Below are positions 1,200 through 15,670 of a stretch of DNA of 64,000 nucleotides, piece after piece. Numbering within the stretch: the first letter of the stretch is position 1; each line of letters opens with the position of its first letter. The DNA comes from Chiloscyllium plagiosum (Eukaryota): positions 1 through 64,000 of the forward strand of contig NC_057752.1 of the NCBI RefSeq assembly GCF_004010195.1. The letters are read 5' to 3'. The notes below the pieces were generated by a model that saw only the letters and a program-made list of their open reading frames with translations, had not been told where the DNA came from and did not search any database. The position numbers were made by a program, and so were the translations under genes.

Positions 1200-2789
1200 G
1201 AGACAATTTTGGAATGTGGGATTAAGGATGTACCCATGGAGAATACCACTTGAGGGAAGGCAATTGCATAGCCTCACTCAGGACATATCCTGAACAGAGG
1301 GACTCGAGGCCAGCCCACAGCAAAGCCCCAAAACAAAGCCAAGCCTCGGCCAAACGGTTAAAGTTTTCTTCAGGATTTGGGCCGGCATGCCAATGCAGTT
1401 GCTGCCGGTATGTGGATTCATAACAGCAAAAATGTCCCACTAGACCTAAACAGAACTCATAGGCCATTAGCCAGGAGACTGTACACACTAGAAAGTCCAC
1501 CTACGTCAGGTCGAGAATAGTTAAATTGCTCAGCATCATCCAAATCAGAGCCAATCAAAATAAATGTCTGGTTCAATGGTCACCCAGTTCAAATAGAGGT
1601 TGATACCAGTGTGGCCATTTTGGTGATTGCAGAACCAGTCTTAGCAAAATTCGCTCTGACTCTAAACCTTGCATAAGCCCTCGGCTAGACTGAGAACCTA
1701 TACTAGGGAACCTTTACAGATTAAGGGTACAATTTCAACTCCGGTCTTTTATGGGAAGCAGCTGGTTCAGTTACCACTAATCGTAGTAAAAGGCTCGAGT
1801 CCAAGCTCAGTGGGGGGAAATTGACTAAGAAAAATTCAGCTTGATTGGCTCCACATTCTTTGATTAGAAAATGGCTGGCTGAGTGAAGTCCTAATTAACT
1901 ACCCAGAGGTTTTTCAGGAAAGCCTAGGGACTAACAAAGGAGCCCAAGGCCATCTGGCATGTTGACCAGAGAGTAATTCCATCATTCTGCAAGACCTGCC
2001 CAGTGCTTTTTGCACCACGGGCAAAAGTAGAGGCAGAAATCAGAAGGCTGGAAAGCAGATGAATCATCAAACCAGTCCAGTTTGCGGAATGGACAGCACT
2101 GGTCATAACGATCTTGCAGCCTGATGGGTCAGTTTGCCTTTGTGAGGTTTTTAAAATGATAAGCAGCTTTTCACAGCTGAATAAATACCCAATTCCTTGC
2201 ATAGGATTTATATACAAAGCTGATGCTGGGTGGGGGTGCTGTCCTTCATGAGCCATGTGCACTTATAATCGTGGTTAAATGAGAATTCCAAGAAGTATGC
2301 TACTTCTTGGGTTAATCATTAGAGTTTGTAGCAATATACAAGACTGTCATTTGGGATATTGTCAGCCTGTGCAATTTTCCAGCTGGCAATAGGGAATATT
2401 TTACAAGGTCTACCCTAGGTTGCTATTTATCTAAATGACGTGCTAATAACTGGGAAGATCAATAAGGAGCACTTAGAGAACATGGACGTCATCCTTCGAC
2501 ATTTCTCCCAGGCATATGCCTTAGAAGGAAAAATGTGTGTTCCAGGCACATAAGTGACTATAGAACTGACAAGACCGGGTTACACGTATTAGAAGATAAA
2601 GTGAGGGTAATCAAAGGTGTCCCAGCTCCCAAGTCTTTACCGGCACTTAAGACTTTCCTTGGGCTGGTGAATTATTACGAAAAGTACATAATCTGGCCTC
2701 TATCCTGGCACCTTTGCATCAACTGTTAAAGGATCAGTCTTCAAAATGGCCACGTAGTCAAGCCACCACTTTCAGGGAAATGAAGAAAC
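1200..2789 (+). mobile_element. Gypsy LTR-retrotransposon pol relic, 5' half (protease and RT)
   Basis: VWFNGHPVQIEVDTS (protease-like) near 1565-1610; VAIYLNDVLITG (YLDD-like) near 2420-2455; LKTFLGLVNYY at 2646-2680. Left boundary approximate. Confidence 0.8.
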
Positions 2790-3008: not shown

Positions 3009-3329
3009 TTACACAGTGGTCTTTCCCCACCGCGCCTTGGCGGCAGCTGCCCCAAGCTTCAGCGCATCCCTCAACACGTAGTCCTGGACCTTGGAATGTG
3101 CCAGTCTGCAACACTCAGTCGGGGTCAACTCCTTCAGCTGGAAGATCAGCAGGTTTCGGACCACCCAGAGAGCGCCCTTCACCGAGTTGATGATCCTCCA
3201 GGCACAGTTGATGTTCGTCTTGGTGTGCGTCCCGGGGAACAGGCCGTAGAGCACGGAGTCCCGCGCCACGGCGCTGCTCGGGACGAACCTCGACAAACAC
3301 CACTGCATTCCTCTCCAGACTTCCTCTGC
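3009..3329 (-). pseudogene. C-terminal fragment of Tx1/L1-clade ORF2
   Basis: AEEVWRGMQWCLSRF...CAWRIINSVKGALWVVRNLLIFQ...ARWGKTTV* resembles the region after the CCHC motif of Tx1-type ORF2; followed by a 3' UTR and poly(A). Confidence 0.75.
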
Positions 3330-3702
3330 TTTTTTCAACACAAACGCACAAAAGCACTTTGTGCTCACTGCAACCAAATGAAGTCTTCTATCAGTCAGGC
3401 GGGGCCCTGCGACGTCACCTCACGCTCGTGGTGGCTGCGCCAAGGTTGAAGTCATTTCGACCTCCAATCAGCAATTCCCATCTCCTCAGCACGTCTTTCC
3501 TCGTCCATGTGGCCTACCGCCTCGCCTGAGTCCACCAGCTGCCGCTGCTGCTCCTCCGACAGGTTGGTTGTTTCATCGAGACTGGCATCAGCAATGTTTG
3601 GTCTCAGCCGTCCGACGGATGAAACGATTTCCTGCACATCCCGGAGCGTGAGTGCTCAGGATCCACTGCGGAAGTAGTGAAAGCAGGGCCTGCTGGTCAA
3701 TG

Positions 3703-3775
3703 GGGGGATTAGCTCAAATGGTAGAGCGCTCGCTTTGCATGCGAGAGGTAGCGGGATCGATGCCCGCATTCTCCA
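3703..3775 (+). tRNA. tRNA-Ala(TGC)
   Basis: 73-nt cloverleaf GGGGGATTAGCTCAAATGGTAGAGC...GATCGATGCCCGCATTCTCCA; anticodon loop TT-TGC-AT; G3:U70 Ala determinant; T-run terminator just downstream. Confidence 0.92.
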
Positions 3776-4329
3776 CTTATTTTTAAAAACGGCAAGTGCA
3801 ACCTCTCACTCGGCTGGTCTGCAGCAGCCGGAACACCGTTTGCGTACGCCGCCTCCCTGAGAGTGGTCCCGAAAGATCAAAAGCTTCACGCGTGAGCGAC
3901 AGGCCGGTCCAGCGTAGGAAGAAAGTCGAGCTGCGCGGCGAAGGCAAACGCCAGCGGCGTTGACGTTTTTATCTCTGCGGGTGAAAGTCAGCTCCTTGAA
4001 AGGATCACACCGGCGGTGGGTGAGCTGCCTGAGGTCAGCGGGCACGTCCTGGACGTGTTGGGAGGCAACTTGAACCAGTCGGTAAGTTGCGGCCCAAACC
4101 CTAACCTGACATGTACATGAAGCTGCGAGTCAGGTACTGTACCGGCAGAATCTGGCAGTTTCGGATCAGCACTCAAGACGATTTCTTCATGCCAGCACTG
4201 GCCGAAGCTGTGGAGATCAGCCAGTGGCTCAGGATCTCCCAGAGTGACAGATTTTCAGGGAGACAATGGCGTGACATTAGTGGAGGTGCGCAGCAAAGCA
4301 TCAGCAAGGGAGAGGCACTGCTGGGCCCT

Positions 4330-4409
4330 CCTTCGATAGCTCAGCTGGTAGAGCGGAGGACTGTAGTCTGTCGCAAATCTGTCATTCCTTAGATCGCCGG
4401 CTCGAAGGG
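4330..4409 (+). pseudogene. tRNA-Tyr(GTA) pseudogene with intron, T-loop/B-box deleted
   Basis: Canonical 5' half CCTTCGATAGCTCAGCTGGTAGAGCGGAGGACTGTAG, then a ~17-18 nt intron, then TCCTTAGATCG-CCGGCTCGAAGG with no GTTCRA loop. Confidence 0.85.
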
Positions 4410-4956
4410 GCCTCAGCTGCTTTTTGGAAAGAGTGCGCATTCACCAGCACGCGGGCCACAGCAACACAGATGAGCTGAAAACGCGACAACGCTTTCAGGA
4501 CGCATCGGCACACACCCTTGCCCCTCTGCAACCAGTCAGCTGTCCCCCTGCCGCGGCTGCAGCTGACGGCCAGCAGGGTGCCCTGTTTTCAACCCCAACA
4601 CACAAAAGCGCTTTGTGCTCACTGCAACCAAATGAAGTCTTCTATCAGTCAGGCGGGGCCACCCGACGTCACCTCACGCTCGTGGTGGCTGCGCCAAGGT
4701 TGAAGTCGTTTTGACCTCCAGTCAGCAATTGCCATCTCCCCAGCACTTCTTTCCTCGTCCATGTGGCCTTCCGCCTCGCCTGAGTCCACCAGCTGCCGCT
4801 GCTGCTCCACCGACAAGTTGGCCGTTTCACCGAGACCGGCATCAGCAATGTTTGGTCTCAGCCGTCCGACAGATGAGAGGATTTCCTGCACATCCCGGAG
4901 CGTGAGTGCTCAGGATCCACTGCGGAAGTAGTGAAAGCAGGGCCTGCTGGTCGATG

Positions 4957-5029
4957 GGGGGATTAGCTCAAATGGTAGAGCGCTCGCTTTGCATGCGAGA
5001 GGTAGCGGGATCGATGCCCGCATTCTCCA
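4957..5029 (+). tRNA. tRNA-Ala(TGC)
   Basis: Identical to 3703-3775; followed by TTTT. Confidence 0.92.
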
Positions 5030-5582
5030 CATGCTTTTAAAACGGCAAGTGCAACCTCTCACTCGGCTGGTCTGCAGCAGCCGGAATACCGTTTGCGTAC
5101 GCCGCCTCCCTGAGAGTGGTCCCGAAAGATCAAAAGCTTCACGCGTGAGCGACAGGCCGGTCCAGCGTAGGAAGAAAGTCGAGCTGCGCGGCGAAGGCAA
5201 ACGCCAGCGGCGTTGACGTTTTTATCTCTGCGGGTGAAAGTCAGCTCCTTGAAAGGATCACACCGGCGGTGGGTGAGCTGCCTGAGGTCAGCGGGCACGT
5301 CCTGGACGTGTTGGGAGGCAACTTGAACCAGACGGTAAGTTGCGGCCCAAACCCTAACCTGACGTGTACATGAAGCTGCGAGTCAGGTACTGTACCGGTA
5401 GAATCTGGCAGTTTCGGATGAGCACTCAAGACGATTTCTTCATGCCAGCACTGGCCGAAGCTGTGGAGATCAGCCAGTGGCTCAGGATCTCCCAGAGTGA
5501 CAGATTTTCAGGGAGACAACAGCGTGACATGAGTGGAGGAGCGCGGCAAAGCATCAGCAAGGGACAGCCACTGCTGGGTTCT

Positions 5583-5662
5583 CCTTCGATAGCTCAGCTG
5601 GTAGAGCGGAGGACTGTAGTCTGTCGCAAATCTGTCATTCCTTAGATCGCCGGCTCGAAGGG
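5583..5662 (+). pseudogene. tRNA-Tyr(GTA) pseudogene with intron, T-loop/B-box deleted
   Basis: Same sequence and same deletion as 4330-4409. Confidence 0.85.
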
Positions 5663-6209
5663 GCCTCAGCTGCTTTTTGGAAAGAGTGCGCATTCACCAG
5701 CACGCGGGCCACAGCAACACAGATGAGCTGAAAACGCGACAACGCTTTCAGGACGCATCGGCACACACCCTTGCCCCTCTGCAACCAGTCAGCTGTCTCC
5801 CTGCCGCGGCTGCAGCTGACGGCCAGCAGGGTGCCCTTTTTTCAACCCCAACACACAAAAGCGCTTTGTGCTCACTGCAACCAAATGAAGTCTTCTATCA
5901 GTCAGGCGGGGCCCTGCGACGTCACCTCACGCTCGTGGTGGCTGCGCCAAGGTTGAAGTCGTTTCGACCTCCAGTCAGCAATTGCCATCTCCCCAGCACT
6001 TCTTTCCTCGTCCATGTGTCGTCCCGCCCCGCCTGAGTCCACCAGCTGCCGCTGCTGCACCTCCGACAAGTTGGTCGTTTCACCGAGACCGGCATCAGCA
6101 ATGTTTGGTCCCAGCCGTCCGACGGATGAGAGAATTCCCTGCACATCCCGGAGCGTGGCTGCTTAGGATCCACTGCCGAAGGAGTGAAGTCAGGGCTGGC
6201 TGTCCAACT

Positions 6210-6282
6210 GGGGGATTAGCACAAATGGTAGAGCGCTCGCTTTGCATGCGAGAGGTAGCGGGATCGATGCCCGCATTCTCCA
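6210..6282 (+). tRNA. tRNA-Ala(TGC), D-stem variant
   Basis: Matches the other copies except GCTC>GCAC, a mismatch in the D-stem/A-box. Confidence 0.8.
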
Positions 6283-6430
6283 CATGCTTTTAAAACGGCA
6301 AGTGCAACCTCTCACTCGGCTGGTCTGCAGCAGCCGGAATACCGTTTGCGTACGCCGCCTCCCTGAGAGTGGTCCCGAAAGATCAAAAGCTTCACGCGTG
6401 AGCGACAGGCCGGTCCAGCGTAGGAAGAAA

Positions 6431-6574
6431 GTCTTCGAACCCGCAGCACTCCAGCAAAATCTTCTTCACAAACACTGTCCGATCGACCGGTGTGTGCTCC
6501 TCCACCTTCTTCACAGTCACCCTGACTGTGTTGGGAATGCCCTGGCCAGGGCTGCGAGCGGCTGCTGAGGCCAT
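6431..6574 (-). pseudogene. N-terminal 48 codons of Tx1-like ORF1
   Basis: MASAAARSPGQGIPNTVRVTVKKVEEHTPVDRTVFVKKILLECCGFED follows a ~240-nt leader and stops abruptly at the tRNA array. Confidence 0.65.
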
Positions 6575-6810
6575 AGCTCTGAGGTTGGCTGGTACCTGAA
6601 TTGGCGTTCGGCCGAAGCCAGCATAAAGATCCACCAAGAGCAGGTCAGCACAACCAAACGATCCTCCAACGTCCAATCACAATCCAGCAATGGTCTCCAG
6701 CCGCTCCGACGACTCGCAATACGATCCCCGTGGTTTCTCCCCCGCCAGCACACGTCCGCTGCGTCGAACCGACAGCACTCGAGCAGAATCTCTTCCTCTG
6801 GTCCTCAGGA

Positions 6811-6847
6811 ACTACACATATTCCGAGCCAAAAGGCCGAGAAGCGAT
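6811..6847 (-). ncRNA. U2 snRNA 5' fragment (nt 1-37) forming the head of the insertion
   Basis: Minus strand ATCGCTTCTCGGCCTTTTGGCTcgGAatAtGTGTAGT versus vertebrate U2 ATCGCTTCTCGGCCTTTTGGCTAAGATCAAGTGTAGT: first 22 nt exact, 32/37 identical, no gaps. Confidence 0.9.
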
Positions 6848-7372
6848 GAAGAAACAGCTATCATCATCAAAGGTGTTGGTGTACTGTGATCCCAAGCAAG
6901 ATCTGGTATTGACATGCAATGCTTCCCCATACGCCATTGGGATCTATTAGCTCATAGGTGGCCCAATGGAGAGAAACGCCCACTAGCAGAAGTCCTGGAT
7001 GCGCACGATAATGCAAAGCATAAATATGCCCAGATACAGAAGGTAGGTTTGGCAATCATATTTGGAGTCAGGAAGTTCTACCAATACCTTTACAGATGTA
7101 AATTTGTAATAATGAACCACAAACCCCTGCTAGACGACAAGACAGTGCCGCCCATAGCTTCAGGCCACATTCAGCGGTGGACTCTAATACAAAGTGAGTA
7201 TAATTACAAGTTGGATTGCTGTCTGGAAGGCAAAGTAGCAAATGCAAGTGCATTGAGTCACTGCCCAGTGGGGACACTTCCAGTCACAGCTGACAATATC
7301 AGACTTTGGACACAGAGATCTGGTCCTGGCAAAACTGAAACAGCTGGTGGAGATGGGGGAAACCAAAGGGCT
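6846..7372 (+). mobile_element. Gypsy pol relic, 3' continuation (RNase H region)
   Basis: MKKQLSSSKVLVYCDPKQDLVLTCNASPYAIG, KYAQIQKVGLAIIFGVRKFYQYL and NHKPL. Confidence 0.85.
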
Positions 7373-8264
7373 GATAGTAAATATGAGGGAAGAAAGGAAG
7401 CACCAGTTAAGTGTTGATGGTTGCAATTCTACTTCATCTGACACTAAAGCAATTTTGCTTCATCTTTTTAATCCTTTTGTGGCAGCCACTGCTTACGCTG
7501 GGGCCTGAAGTGGACATTATGCTCGTTTTAAGGCAGCAAATGGGGAATGTCTGTAAAATGTTCCAACCCCATGTCGGACAGCTTTCAAGCAGCCTTTGGA
7601 CATTGGCTGTCATTGCACACATTTTCAACCGAAGGTCCAATATCTTTCTGTCTGGATTGCTCAGCAACACCTGTAGAGTGCAGGTAGATATTGATCCTTG
7701 GGAGAGTATAATCCTTCTGAAATTTTAAACAAGCCAATCTGATTAAAGACTACAGCAGGTAGGCTGAAATGTGGAGTTGTAGCCACAATCAGATCAGCCT
7801 TATTAAATAGTAGAGCATATTTGAGGGGCCTGCTTCTAATTTGCATGTTTCTTTTTAATATGTTGGGATCTTGACTGGACAACTTTTTAAAAGGATGAAA
7901 TTCACATCATTCATCCTTCTCCCCTGTGCTTGCAGAAGTAGATTAACAAGTTAGTCCAGCAAGACCTCAATCTTAAAATTCACGTGTGCTTTCAAATGCT
8001 TGCACCCTTCTCTGTCTGTAACCTTTTCCAGCCTCACAACATCTTCCAAATCTGTAGCTCTTCTGATTCTAGCCTCTTTAACATGCACTCACATACAGAC
8101 TTGTTCCTTTGTTTCCAAAAATAAACTTTTTTGTAAAATACTCAAACAAACGTTATAAACGTTTCAACTTGAATTACAACATTTACAAGAAAATTCATCT
8201 TCTTGCTGTACAGCACCTTCCATGCACAAGACAATTGTCATAGACACAATTGTCATAGACTAAG

Positions 8265-9965
8265 ACATTTAGTTGTACAGCATGGATACAGACCCTTCAG
8301 CCAACTCATCCATGCTAACCAGATATCCTAAATAAATCTAGTCCCATTTGCCAGCAGTTGGCCCACATCCCTCTAAATCCTTCATTTTCATATACCCATC
8401 CAGATGCCTTTTAAATGTTGTAATTGTACCAGTCTCCACCACTTCCTCTGACAGCTCATTCCATACACGCACCACCCTCTGTGTGAAAATGTTGCCCTTT
8501 AGGTCCCTTCTAAGTCTTTCCCCTCTCACCTTGAACCTGAGCCTTCCAGTTTTGGTCTCCCCTACCCTGGGGAAAAAATCTTGGCTATTCACCCTATCCA
8601 TGTCCCTCATGATTTTATAAACCTTTGTAAGGTCAACCCTCAACCTCCAATGCTCCAGGGAAAAAAGCCCCAGCCTAAAGTCATAGTCTCATACAGCATG
8701 GAAACAGATCCTTCGCTCCATCCAGTTCATGTTGACCATGGTCCCAAATTAAACTAATCCCACCTGCCTGCACTCGGCCATTATCCCTCCAAACATTTCC
8801 TATTCATGAACTTATTCAAATGTCTTTTAAACATTGTAACTGTACCTGCATCCACCACTCCCTCTGGCAGTTCAATTCACACAACTGTCTGTGTCAGAAA
8901 AAATGCCACTCATGTCATTTTTAATTGCCAGAGGATGTGGTGGAGGCTGGTACAATTGCAACATTTAAGAGGCATTTGGATTGGTATGTGAATAGGAAGG
9001 GTTTGGAGGGATATGGGCCAGGTGCTGGCAGGTGGGACTAGATTGGGTTGGGATAATTGGTCGGCATGGACGGGTTGGACCAAAAGGGTCTGTACATCCC
9101 TATGATTCTAATTTTAAAAATATGCCCCTGAGTTTTGAATTCCCCCACCCTCGGGAAAACACCCCTGTCATTCACTTTATGATTAGATTAGATTTGCTAC
9201 AGTGTGGAAACCGACCCTCTGAAGAGTAACCCAACCAGACCCATTTCCCTCTGACTAATGTATCTGACACTATGGGCAATTTAGCATGACCAATTCACCT
9301 AACCTGCACATCTTTGGATTGTGGGAGGAATCCGGAGCACCCGGAGGAAACCCACGCAGACACGGGGAGAATGTGCAAACTCCACACACGCAGTCTCCTG
9401 AGGCTGGAATCGAACCTGGGACCCTGGCACTGTGAGGCAGAAGTGCTAACCACTGTGCCATCGTGCCGCCCATCTAAGCATCTCATGATTTTATAAACCA
9501 TAATAAGGTCATCCCTCAACCTCCTATGCTCCAGTAAAAAAGTCCTGCTTTTCCAATCTATTTTTTATATCTCATACCCTCCATTCCCCGCATCATCCTG
9601 GTAAATCTTTTCTGAACCTTCTTCAGTTTAATAATATTCTTCCTATAACCAGGCAACCAGAACTGTACACAGTACTCCAGAAGAGGGCTCTCAACATGCT
9701 GCATGACCTCAACATGAAGTCCTGTACTCAAAGGTCTAAGCAAGGAATAGAATAATCTATTCAGCCTCTCCCTACAGCTCAAACCCTCAAATCCCTAAAA
9801 CATTCTTGCAAATCTTTTCTGAACCCTTTCAAGTTTACTAACACCTTTCCTATAGCTGTGAGACCAGAATTGAACACAGTATTCCAAAAGTGGCCTCACC
9901 AATGTCCAGTATAGCCACAACATGACGTCCCAAACCCTATACTTCTCTACCTGGGAAAATGACCT
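8265..9965 (-). mobile_element. Cluster of nested CR1/HER1 3' fragments, mostly minus; a short plus fragment at ~8925-9110
   Basis: ORF 8338-8643 GNIFTQRVVRVWNELSEEVVE; LEYCVQFW near 9660. Confidence 0.8.
9181..9470 (-). mobile_element. HE1-type tRNA-derived SINE
   Basis: On minus: GGGCGGCACGATGGCACAGTGGTTAGCAC (A box), GGTTCGATTCC (B box), TGTGGAGTTTGCACATTCTCCCCGTGTCTGCGTGGG core, (TAATC)n tail. Confidence 0.85.
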
Positions 9966-13544: not shown

Positions 13545-15670
13545 ATAGACAAAAGGTGCAGGAGTAGGCCATTCTGCCCTTTGAGACTGCACCACCATTC
13601 AATATGATCATGGCTGATCATCGTTAATCAGTATCCTGTTCCTGCCTTAGCTCCATAACCGTTGATCCCACAATCCTTGAGAGCTCTATCCAATTCTTTC
13701 TTAAATGAATCAGAGATTGGGCCTCCACTGCCCTCTGGGGAAAAGCATTCCACACAGCCACCACTCTCTGGGTGAAGAAGTTTCTCCTCACCTCTGTCCT
13801 AAATGGTCTACCCCATATTTTTAAGCTGTGTCCTCTGGTTCGGCACTCACCCATCAGCGGAAACATGTTTCCTGCTGCCAGAGTGTCCAAANNNNNNNNN
13901 NNNNNNNNNNNNNNNNNNNNNNNNNNNNNNNNNNNNNNNNNNNNNNNNNNNNNNNNNNNNNNNNNNNNNNNNNNNNNNNNNNNNNNNNNNNNNNNNNNNN
14001 NNNNNNNNNNNNNNNNNNNNNNNNNNNNNNNNNNNNNNNNNNNNNNNNNNNNNNNNNNNNNNNNNNNNNNNNNNNNNNNNNNNNNNNNNNNNNNNNNNNN
14101 NNNNNNNNNNNNNNNNNNNNNNNNNNNNNNNNNNNNNNNNNNNNNNNNNNATGTCTTTCCTCAAATTTGGAGACCAGAACTGCACACAGTACTCCAGGTG
14201 TGGTCTCACCAGGGCCCTGTACAGCTGCAGAAGAACCTCTTTGCTTCTATACTCAATTCCTCTTGTTATGAAGGCCAGCATGCTATTAGCCTTCTTCACT
14301 ACCTGCTGTACCTGCATGCTTACCTTCATTGACTGGTGTATATGAACACCCAAATCTCTCTGTACTGCCCCTTTACCTAAATTGGTTCCATTTATCTAGT
14401 AATCTGCCTTCCTGTTCTTGCCACCAAAGTGAATAACCATACATTTATCCACATTAAACTGCATCTGCCATGCATCTGACCACTCACCTAACTTGTCCAG
14501 GTCACCCTGTAATCTCCTAACATCCTCATCACATTTCACCCTGCCACCCGGCTTAGTATCATCAGCAAATTTGCTAATGTTATTGCTAATACCATCTTCT
14601 ATATCATTAACATATATTGTAAAAAGCTGCGGTCCTAGTAAAGTTCCCTGCAGTACCCCACTGGTCACTGCCTGCCATTCCGAAATAGAGCCGTTTATCA
14701 CTACTCTTTGTTTCCTATCAGCCAACCAACTTTCAATCCAGGTTAGTACTTTGCCCCCAATACCATGCGCCTAATTTTGCTCACTTACCTCCTATGTGGG
14801 ACTTTATCAAAAGCTTTCTGAAAGTCCAGGTACACCACATCTACTGGATCTCCCTCGTCCATCTTCAGAGTTACATCCTCAAAAAATTCCAGAAGATTAG
14901 TCAAGCATGATTTCCCCTTCATAAATCCATGCTGACTCTGACCTATCCTGTTACTACTATCCAGATGTGTCATAATTTCATCCTTTATAATAGACTCCAG
15001 CATCTTTCCCACCACTGAGGTCAGACTAACTGGTCTATAATTTCCTGCTTTCTCTCCCCACCTTTCTTAAAAAGTGGTATAACATTAGCCACCCTCCAAT
15101 CCGCAGGAACTGATCCCGAATCTATCGAACTCTGGAAAATAATCACCAATGCATCCACGATTTCTCGAGCCACCTTGGGATGTAGACCATCAGGCCCCGG
15201 GGACTTATCAACCTTCAGACTTAACAGTCTCTCCAACACCAATTCCTGGCAAATATAAATTCCCTTAAATTCAAGTCCTTCAGCCACTGTTACCTCAGGG
15301 AGATTGCTTGTGTCTTCCCCAGTGAACACAGATCTGAAGTACCAATTCAATTCTTCTGCCATTTCTTTGTTCCCCATCATATATTCCCCTGTTTCTGTCT
15401 TCACCATTTTTTTGCTTTTCACATACCTAACAAAGCTTTTACTATCCTCCTTTATATTATTGGCCAGTTTACCTTCGTACCTCATTTTTTCTCTGCATAT
15501 TTCCTTCTTAGTAATTCTCTGTTCTTTAAAAGCTTCCCAGTCCTCCGTTTTCCCACTCATCTTTGCTATGTTATACTTTTTCTCTTTTGACTTTATATGT
15601 TTCTTAACTTCCCTCGTCAGCCACGGCCACCCCTGCCTCCTCCTAGGATCTTTCTTCCTTTTTGGAATGA
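13545..15670 (-). mobile_element. CR1-type LINE (RT region to 3' end), spanning the gap
   Basis: ORF fragments KSPGPDGLHP, QHGFMKGKSCLTNLLEFFE, YLDFQKAFDKVPH, FADDTK and LEYCVQFWSP. Confidence 0.9.
13892..14150. other. Assembly gap (259 N)
   Basis: Run of N inside a LINE copy. Confidence 1.

Follow-up and report, generated by a model that had tools for sequence, protein, structure and literature searches.

The U2-like stretch in the window, by which we mean the whole 64,000 nt of shark DNA analysed here, is the 5' end of an L1-group LINE, likely of the Tx1 clade, and is probably carried as a fixed, diverged leader from a long-ago capture of U2. The head recurs on copies elsewhere, which makes it likely that the family inherits it. 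This holds for the copies seen, whose heads are known by position rather than by their letters at nt 23-30. Copies were sought in sequencing runs, 20 of the 24 listed holding the stretch wholly or partly, in four organisms. Contigs of four of these runs (X1-X4) were aligned to 6290-7000 at 80% likeness, a step that discards contigs resembling human sequence and may thereby conceal copies whose U2 head is unaltered. The element runs from 6847 down to 2790 on the minus strand (4,058 nt) and has both ends of a LINE. Its parts and surroundings are as follows.

6848..7417, plus strand: host site, a decayed Gypsy-type pol (RNase H-like) that resumes below 2780
6846..6855: 5' copy of the 10-bp target-site duplication, overlapping U2 nt 2-1 at 6846-6847
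6806..6847, minus strand: U2-derived head, nt 1-42, probable end; 35/42 to human U2, extended by way of the variant at 6809 and a loose end at 6806
6575..6805, minus strand: 5' UTR, CpG-rich, a candidate internal promoter by composition; covered by family contigs
6434..6574, minus strand: start of ORF1, 47 codons, interrupted at 6433; from Pfam and likeness to a fish LINE protein
3329..6433, plus strand: tRNA tandem array, 2.5 units of 1253 bp, replacing the LINE interior and antisense to the element
6210..6282, plus strand: tRNA-Ala(TGC) gene, 52.7 bits, one D-stem pair broken
4957..5029, plus strand: tRNA-Ala(TGC) gene, 59.3 bits
3703..3775, plus strand: tRNA-Ala(TGC) gene, 59.3 bits
3009..3329, minus strand: last 106 codons of ORF2 and stop; from likeness to XP_060685631.1 and P0067
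2790..3008, minus strand: 3' UTR, with AATAAA at 2816-2811 and an A10 tail at 2799-2790
2780..2789: target-site duplication, 3' copy, 10 bp, from the same junction comparison

The U2-derived head and other copies that carry it

An exact 22-mer on the minus strand (6847-6826) equals nt 1-22 of human U2. In a comparison by eye with the human sequence printed in S1 Fig of PMC4640811, 6847-6811 (minus strand) matches U2 nt 1-37 at 32/37 positions, the mismatches lying at nt 23, 24, 27, 28 and 30. The earlier note had described an ungapped identity of 22/22 and then 32/37, with five mismatches clustered at nt 23-30, and both descriptions are borne out. A chance match to U2 is ruled out: the 22-mer is the sole match in the 64-kb window at up to three mismatches, and 0 of 100 shuffles yielded one. 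In a comparison with the Rfam models, the U2 one having been proposed earlier as a check, U2 is the best of six matches in 6300-7100 (25.1 bits, E 0.0067), which lies under the gathering score of 46, and the Rfam scan at the gathering threshold made no U2 call. Within the 64-kb window, the element and the head each occur only once.

The element had been said to start exactly at U2 +1 and to leave U2 after nt 37. The first part stands to within 2 nt, as bases +1 and +2 of the head (6847-6846) may be target-derived in the window copy; indeed, the stated overlap of the first two U2 nt with the target-site duplication is correct, 6846-6847 being the end of the 10-bp repeat. The second part is superseded: the letters beyond nt 37 indicate that the head most likely ends at nt 42. 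Nucleotides 38-42 match U2 at 3/5 positions and nt 43-47 at 0/5, giving 35/42 for nt 1-42 as a whole. At nt 39 (6809), 23% of the summed depth in X2, 19% in X3 and 54% in X4 carry the U2 letter. In X2, two contigs agree with the element as far as nt 42 (6806) and then continue as U2-like sequence from nt 43 to about 57-58; their nt 43-58 match the published Keno 3' flank at 13/16 positions, and they depart from human U2 after about nt 57. We assign these two contigs to a different family or subfamily, one whose U2 head is longer.

With the end at nt 42, the fit to the Keno nick site is weak. Moreover, PMC4640811 places the Keno/Utopia 3' junction at U2 nt 39; how long a read-through head is would then vary with the duplication, and 37 is only one possible value. 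The coincidence with Keno at nt 37 drawn on in the earlier note is not supported, the head probably reaching nt 42 and Keno's 37/38 being a 3' junction.

The head departs from human U2 at 7/42 positions. Because human and an oomycete have the same letters at U2 nt 4-48 (PMC4640811), seven changes against so nearly invariant a sequence show that no working U2 gene served as the source of the head. The window copy departs from the X2-X4 majority at at least 8 positions among those listed in 414 nt (about 2%), so decay after insertion gives about one change in 42 nt, not seven. In the Rfam alignment every stem I pair of the head is a standard one; the changes include nt 27 and 28, which fall within G25-C28, and nt 38. 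As the G25-C28 stretch of U2 pairs with U6 (PMC13019295), the head would not be expected to work as U2. Its hairpin is unremarkable against shuffles (z -1.73).

At least five pieces run from the 5' UTR into the head (5/32 among the pieces listed): one in X2 (record 16), three in X3 (records 22, 23 and 24) and one in X4 (record 32). They represent three organisms and are 9-17% diverged from the window copy, and three of them continue for 324, 1,105 and 407 letters unlike the window locus. U2 sequence is hence the 5' end of family copies outside U2 genes. Record 23 of X3 ends exactly at 6847; three headed pieces begin at nt 8-12 of the head, not at +1. A single template-switch chimera, named earlier as the finding that could overturn a family-wide head, is rejected, since the same join of head and 5' UTR occurs at other loci in three organisms and 7/42 letters are unlike U2.

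The depth of bin 6818-6841 is 3.7, 4.0 and 17 times that of bin 6770-6793 in X2, X3 and X4, a ratio of summed depths that gives no copy number; it is the highest of the stretch in X2 and X4 and among the highest in X3. None of the 40 differences listed falls in 6811-6847, and weakly supported ones elsewhere are listed. Several pieces among those listed stop at 6649-6697 and pass into other sequence, being either truncated copies or copies with other 5' UTRs. X1 has no cover at 6746-6841 and is therefore uninformative on the head. No piece among those listed spans either junction of the window copy, the one at 6433 or the one at 6847. In metagenomes, the head and an ORF1 motif both gave 0 stretches, and related-locus scans of genome contig and viral contig collections returned no relative.

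Architecture and insertion site of the element

The 5' part of the element (6433-6847) has a GC content of 0.57 and an observed-to-expected CpG ratio of 0.86, against 0.23-0.26 in the flanks. The ORF1 piece meets the Pfam family RBD_ZCCHC3_1st at E 0.0086, below cut-off, and is 45% identical over 44 aa to the ORF1 start inside the fish LINE protein P0030; against proteins at E 0.001 it has no match. Intact ORF1 continuing past 6433 appears as loose ends in run contigs. Splicing as the cause of the ORF1/array junction is rejected, since this intact continuation has no GT donor, and so is an snRNA 3'-box at the break, the sole look-alike lying upstream of it.

The ORF2 piece is 93% identical to Hemiscyllium ocellatum XP_060685631.1, which points to a shark host, probably a near relative of that species, and 66% identical to the full-length P0067. 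The best solved relative of P0067 is human L1 ORF2p (endonuclease and reverse transcriptase covered, E 4e-86), which places the family in the L1 group; in the window copy the endonuclease and reverse transcriptase part of ORF2 is absent, the interior having been replaced. An ORF1 start, an ORF2 end, the A10 tail and the 10-bp duplication, all features of the L1 group, are present. The element is thus a shark L1-group LINE, likely of the Tx1 clade, the Tx1 label following its ORF1 type. No Keno label was met among 24,194 unnamed relatives from a profile-free representative search or among 20 clusters looked up, and no paper linking ZCCHC3 with Tx1 was found in the open-access literature.

The units of the tRNA array are 93-96% alike, and one base is shared at each array/LINE junction. 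Since the whole composite lies inside one target-site duplication, retrotransposition probably carried the tRNA genes along, or else repair copied them in. Each array unit also holds a second tRNA-like piece (4330-4409 and 5583-5662, plus strand) without part of the T arm. These are probably intron-bearing and tRNA-Tyr-like; ARAGORN and Rfam made no call on them.

The perfect 10-bp duplication is the only exact repeat of at least 6 between the two junction regions. Together with the poly(A) tail, it shows that the window copy was made by target-primed reverse transcription. The host site matches Pfam RT_RNaseH (E 4.7e-9), the Gypsy frames of the two flanks meet at the duplication, and 81 contigs in X2, 63 in X3 and 49 in X4 show the empty site, as loose ends at 6847. 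As the Gypsy flanks join at the duplication, a U2 gene or pseudogene at this site is rejected. There is no U2 sequence on either flank of the window copy, and the 300 nt upstream, searched for a U2-type PSE/DSE, are Gypsy coding relic with no octamer. Hence neither a PSE/DSE upstream nor U2 nt 38 onward after the poly(A), the marks suggested earlier for a copy resident in a U2 gene, occurs at the window copy, which has Gypsy on both sides. Its target agrees with the Keno 3' flank published in PMC6136364 at 2/10 positions from the junction; a Keno-like target is rejected, as it would need a 3-nt shift and gaps.

Two further features of the window lie outside the element. Long inverted repeats on either side of the region (752-1164 versus 8266-8883, 78-88% alike) are probably dispersed LINE tails in opposite orientation, and positions 13892-14150 are an assembly gap of 259 N.

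Origin of the head

A fixed, diverged head, which the earlier note had favoured by analogy with crocodilian SINEU, agrees with the presence of the head on copies at other loci in three organisms and has its precedent among the SINEU and Tx1 elements of PMC4494074. The head probably arose from an ancestor that lay in a U2 gene and whose transcription began at the U2 start or, alternatively, from a jump of reverse transcriptase to a U2 5' fragment. It would then have been inherited with the element and drifted, keeping stem I and losing bases that pair with U6. Transcription would now most likely be driven from the CpG-rich 5' UTR, starting at the head.

The alternative to be taken most seriously, though we regard it as rather unlikely, is that the family borrows the U2 promoter. 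Masters would sit in U2 loci, where, once a Keno-type insertion has occurred, the 5' piece of U2 can mutate and the upstream PSE/DSE still drives transcription from +1; dispersed copies would inherit the mutated head and no promoter. The start at U2 +1 accords with this, as does the statement in PMC4494074 that no internal promoter is reported for snRNA genes. Two sets of joints to unaltered U2 also point this way. Record 6 of X1 has U2 nt 39-52 directly before a truncated copy starting at 6731, and these letters match the published Keno flank at 14/14 positions. Such a joint would be expected either of an insertion of the Keno type that duplicates 14 bp or of a new template switch. X4 has unaltered U2 nt 23-28 joined to the 5' UTR at 6631 and 6663 (depth 24.7 and 9.1), in the same orientation in 2/2 cases. 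Both are GATC sites, and since the GATC at 6380 is also doubled in X4, this run is likely a Hi-C library. The two joints are therefore not to be read as genomic junctions, and genomic chimeras are rejected in favour of ligation products as the more likely source. As such, they suggest that unaltered U2 5' ends lie close upstream of some family copies. The family may therefore include a branch resident in U2 genes or a subfamily whose head is unaltered.

Against a borrowed promoter, the X4 joints would arise equally from a dispersed subfamily with an unaltered head, and an orientation shared by 2/2 is weak. The window copy has no U2 flank, and its target agrees poorly with that of Keno. Moreover, headed pieces 9-17% diverged in three organisms would call for long-lived or renewed masters that pass on the same head each time. 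The earlier proposal of a master copy in a U2 gene is therefore disfavoured for this head, given the 7/42 changes and the lack of U2 flanks, and may yet hold for the family, given the joins to unaltered U2.

A further group of joints concerns ORF1. At least four among those listed (X2, X3 and X4) link the start of the head (6844-6847) to ORF1 codons 48-51, whose window equivalent, 6423-6434, lies within 11 nt of the break at 6433. One of them has a depth of 64, where X2 contigs with unique flanks have 3-6. As a lead, the joints may reflect self-targeting within ORF1 or else a 5' module of 420 nt that recurs, within the limit that the ORF1 compared stops at 6433 in the window copy. At a self-target site, an array-plus-tail piece would land in ORF1 at codons 48-51, and transcription of the composite, beginning at the outer head and ending at the inner poly(A) signal, would then allow a further move. 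One could go further and see in the head a selected, disarmed U2 leader, with stem I kept and U6-pairing bases changed, that allows snRNA-type transcription without disturbing splicing; the family would renew itself in U2 genes and in its own ORF1 at codons 48-51, and its first 420 nt would be a portable front end launching passengers such as the three tRNA genes. We think this improbable.

Recurrent template switching to U2 5' fragments or to short headed RNAs, copy by copy as in SINEU-2, is less plausible still. U2 lengths do vary by junction (nt 42 in the window, about nt 57 in X2, nt 52 in X1), and recurrent 5' addition is described in PMC4494074. Yet in several copies from several organisms the junction of the head with a complete 5' UTR falls at one position, and its seven changes are absent from cellular U2; switching might add further heads, not this one. 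That the head was copied from a real variant shark U2 gene bearing these letters can be all but discarded: stem I is kept and two X2 contigs are U2-like to about nt 57, but those contigs leave human U2 thereafter, the changes strike U6-pairing bases (PMC13019295), and a literature search by title and abstract opening gave no shark U2 variant.

Comparison with known systems

The U2 head on this LINE extends U2-headed LINEs to cartilaginous fish and involves no new principle; no paper on such LINEs in sharks was found in the open-access literature, Repbase lying outside the search. PMC4494074 treats the transcription of snRNA-headed retroposons as an unanswered question. The crocodilian Tx1-Mar families are old, and the shark family is younger, with a window copy about 2% from the majority; its thousands of contigs in public runs could be used to test an internal promoter against a borrowed U2 promoter.

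Keno offers a partial parallel. It is an AP-endonuclease LINE tied to the U2 5' end, and some shark family copies appear to be joined to unaltered U2. In contrast, Keno is followed by U2 nt 39 onward (PMC4494074, PMC4640811 and PMC6136364), whereas the window copy is followed by Gypsy sequence and lies outside any U2 gene, the target that defines Keno; its head is altered and stops near nt 42.

The snRNA-L1 chimeras of Buzdin 2002 and Garcia-Perez 2007 (as cited in PMC4494074) likewise place an snRNA 5' piece and a LINE within one target-site duplication. Those are single events with truncated LINEs and cellular snRNA letters, whereas the shark head is shared and altered and is followed by a full 5' UTR. 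SINEU-1 and SINEU-2 (PMC4494074) resemble the element in having U2-derived heads, of several lengths, with a poly(A) and a target-site duplication of about 10 bp; unlike the 4,058-nt window element, whose head leads a LINE 5' UTR and ORF1, they are non-coding and shorter than 500 bp.

The closest parallels are the crocodilian snRNA-headed Tx1 elements, a group that clusters with Keno (Kojima 2015, PMC4494074), although the host here is a shark. A U2 head is described there for Tx1-11_Crp, and U1 heads for Tx1-2_Crp, Tx1-2B_Crp and Tx1-4_AMi. Copies of Tx1-Mar are 85-87% identical to their consensus and prefer Mariner-N4_AMi, whereas the window copy departs by about 2% from its family majority and sits, at the one site seen, in a Gypsy pol. 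That location is in keeping with Tx1-8_Crp and Tx1-4_AMi, which prefer LTR elements. The shark element, likely also a Tx1-type LINE, shares with Tx1-11_Crp a U2-derived 5' head carried by the family and a siting outside U2 genes. On the best reading, the element thus behaves as a U2-headed Tx1 and may be set beside Tx1-11_Crp by description.
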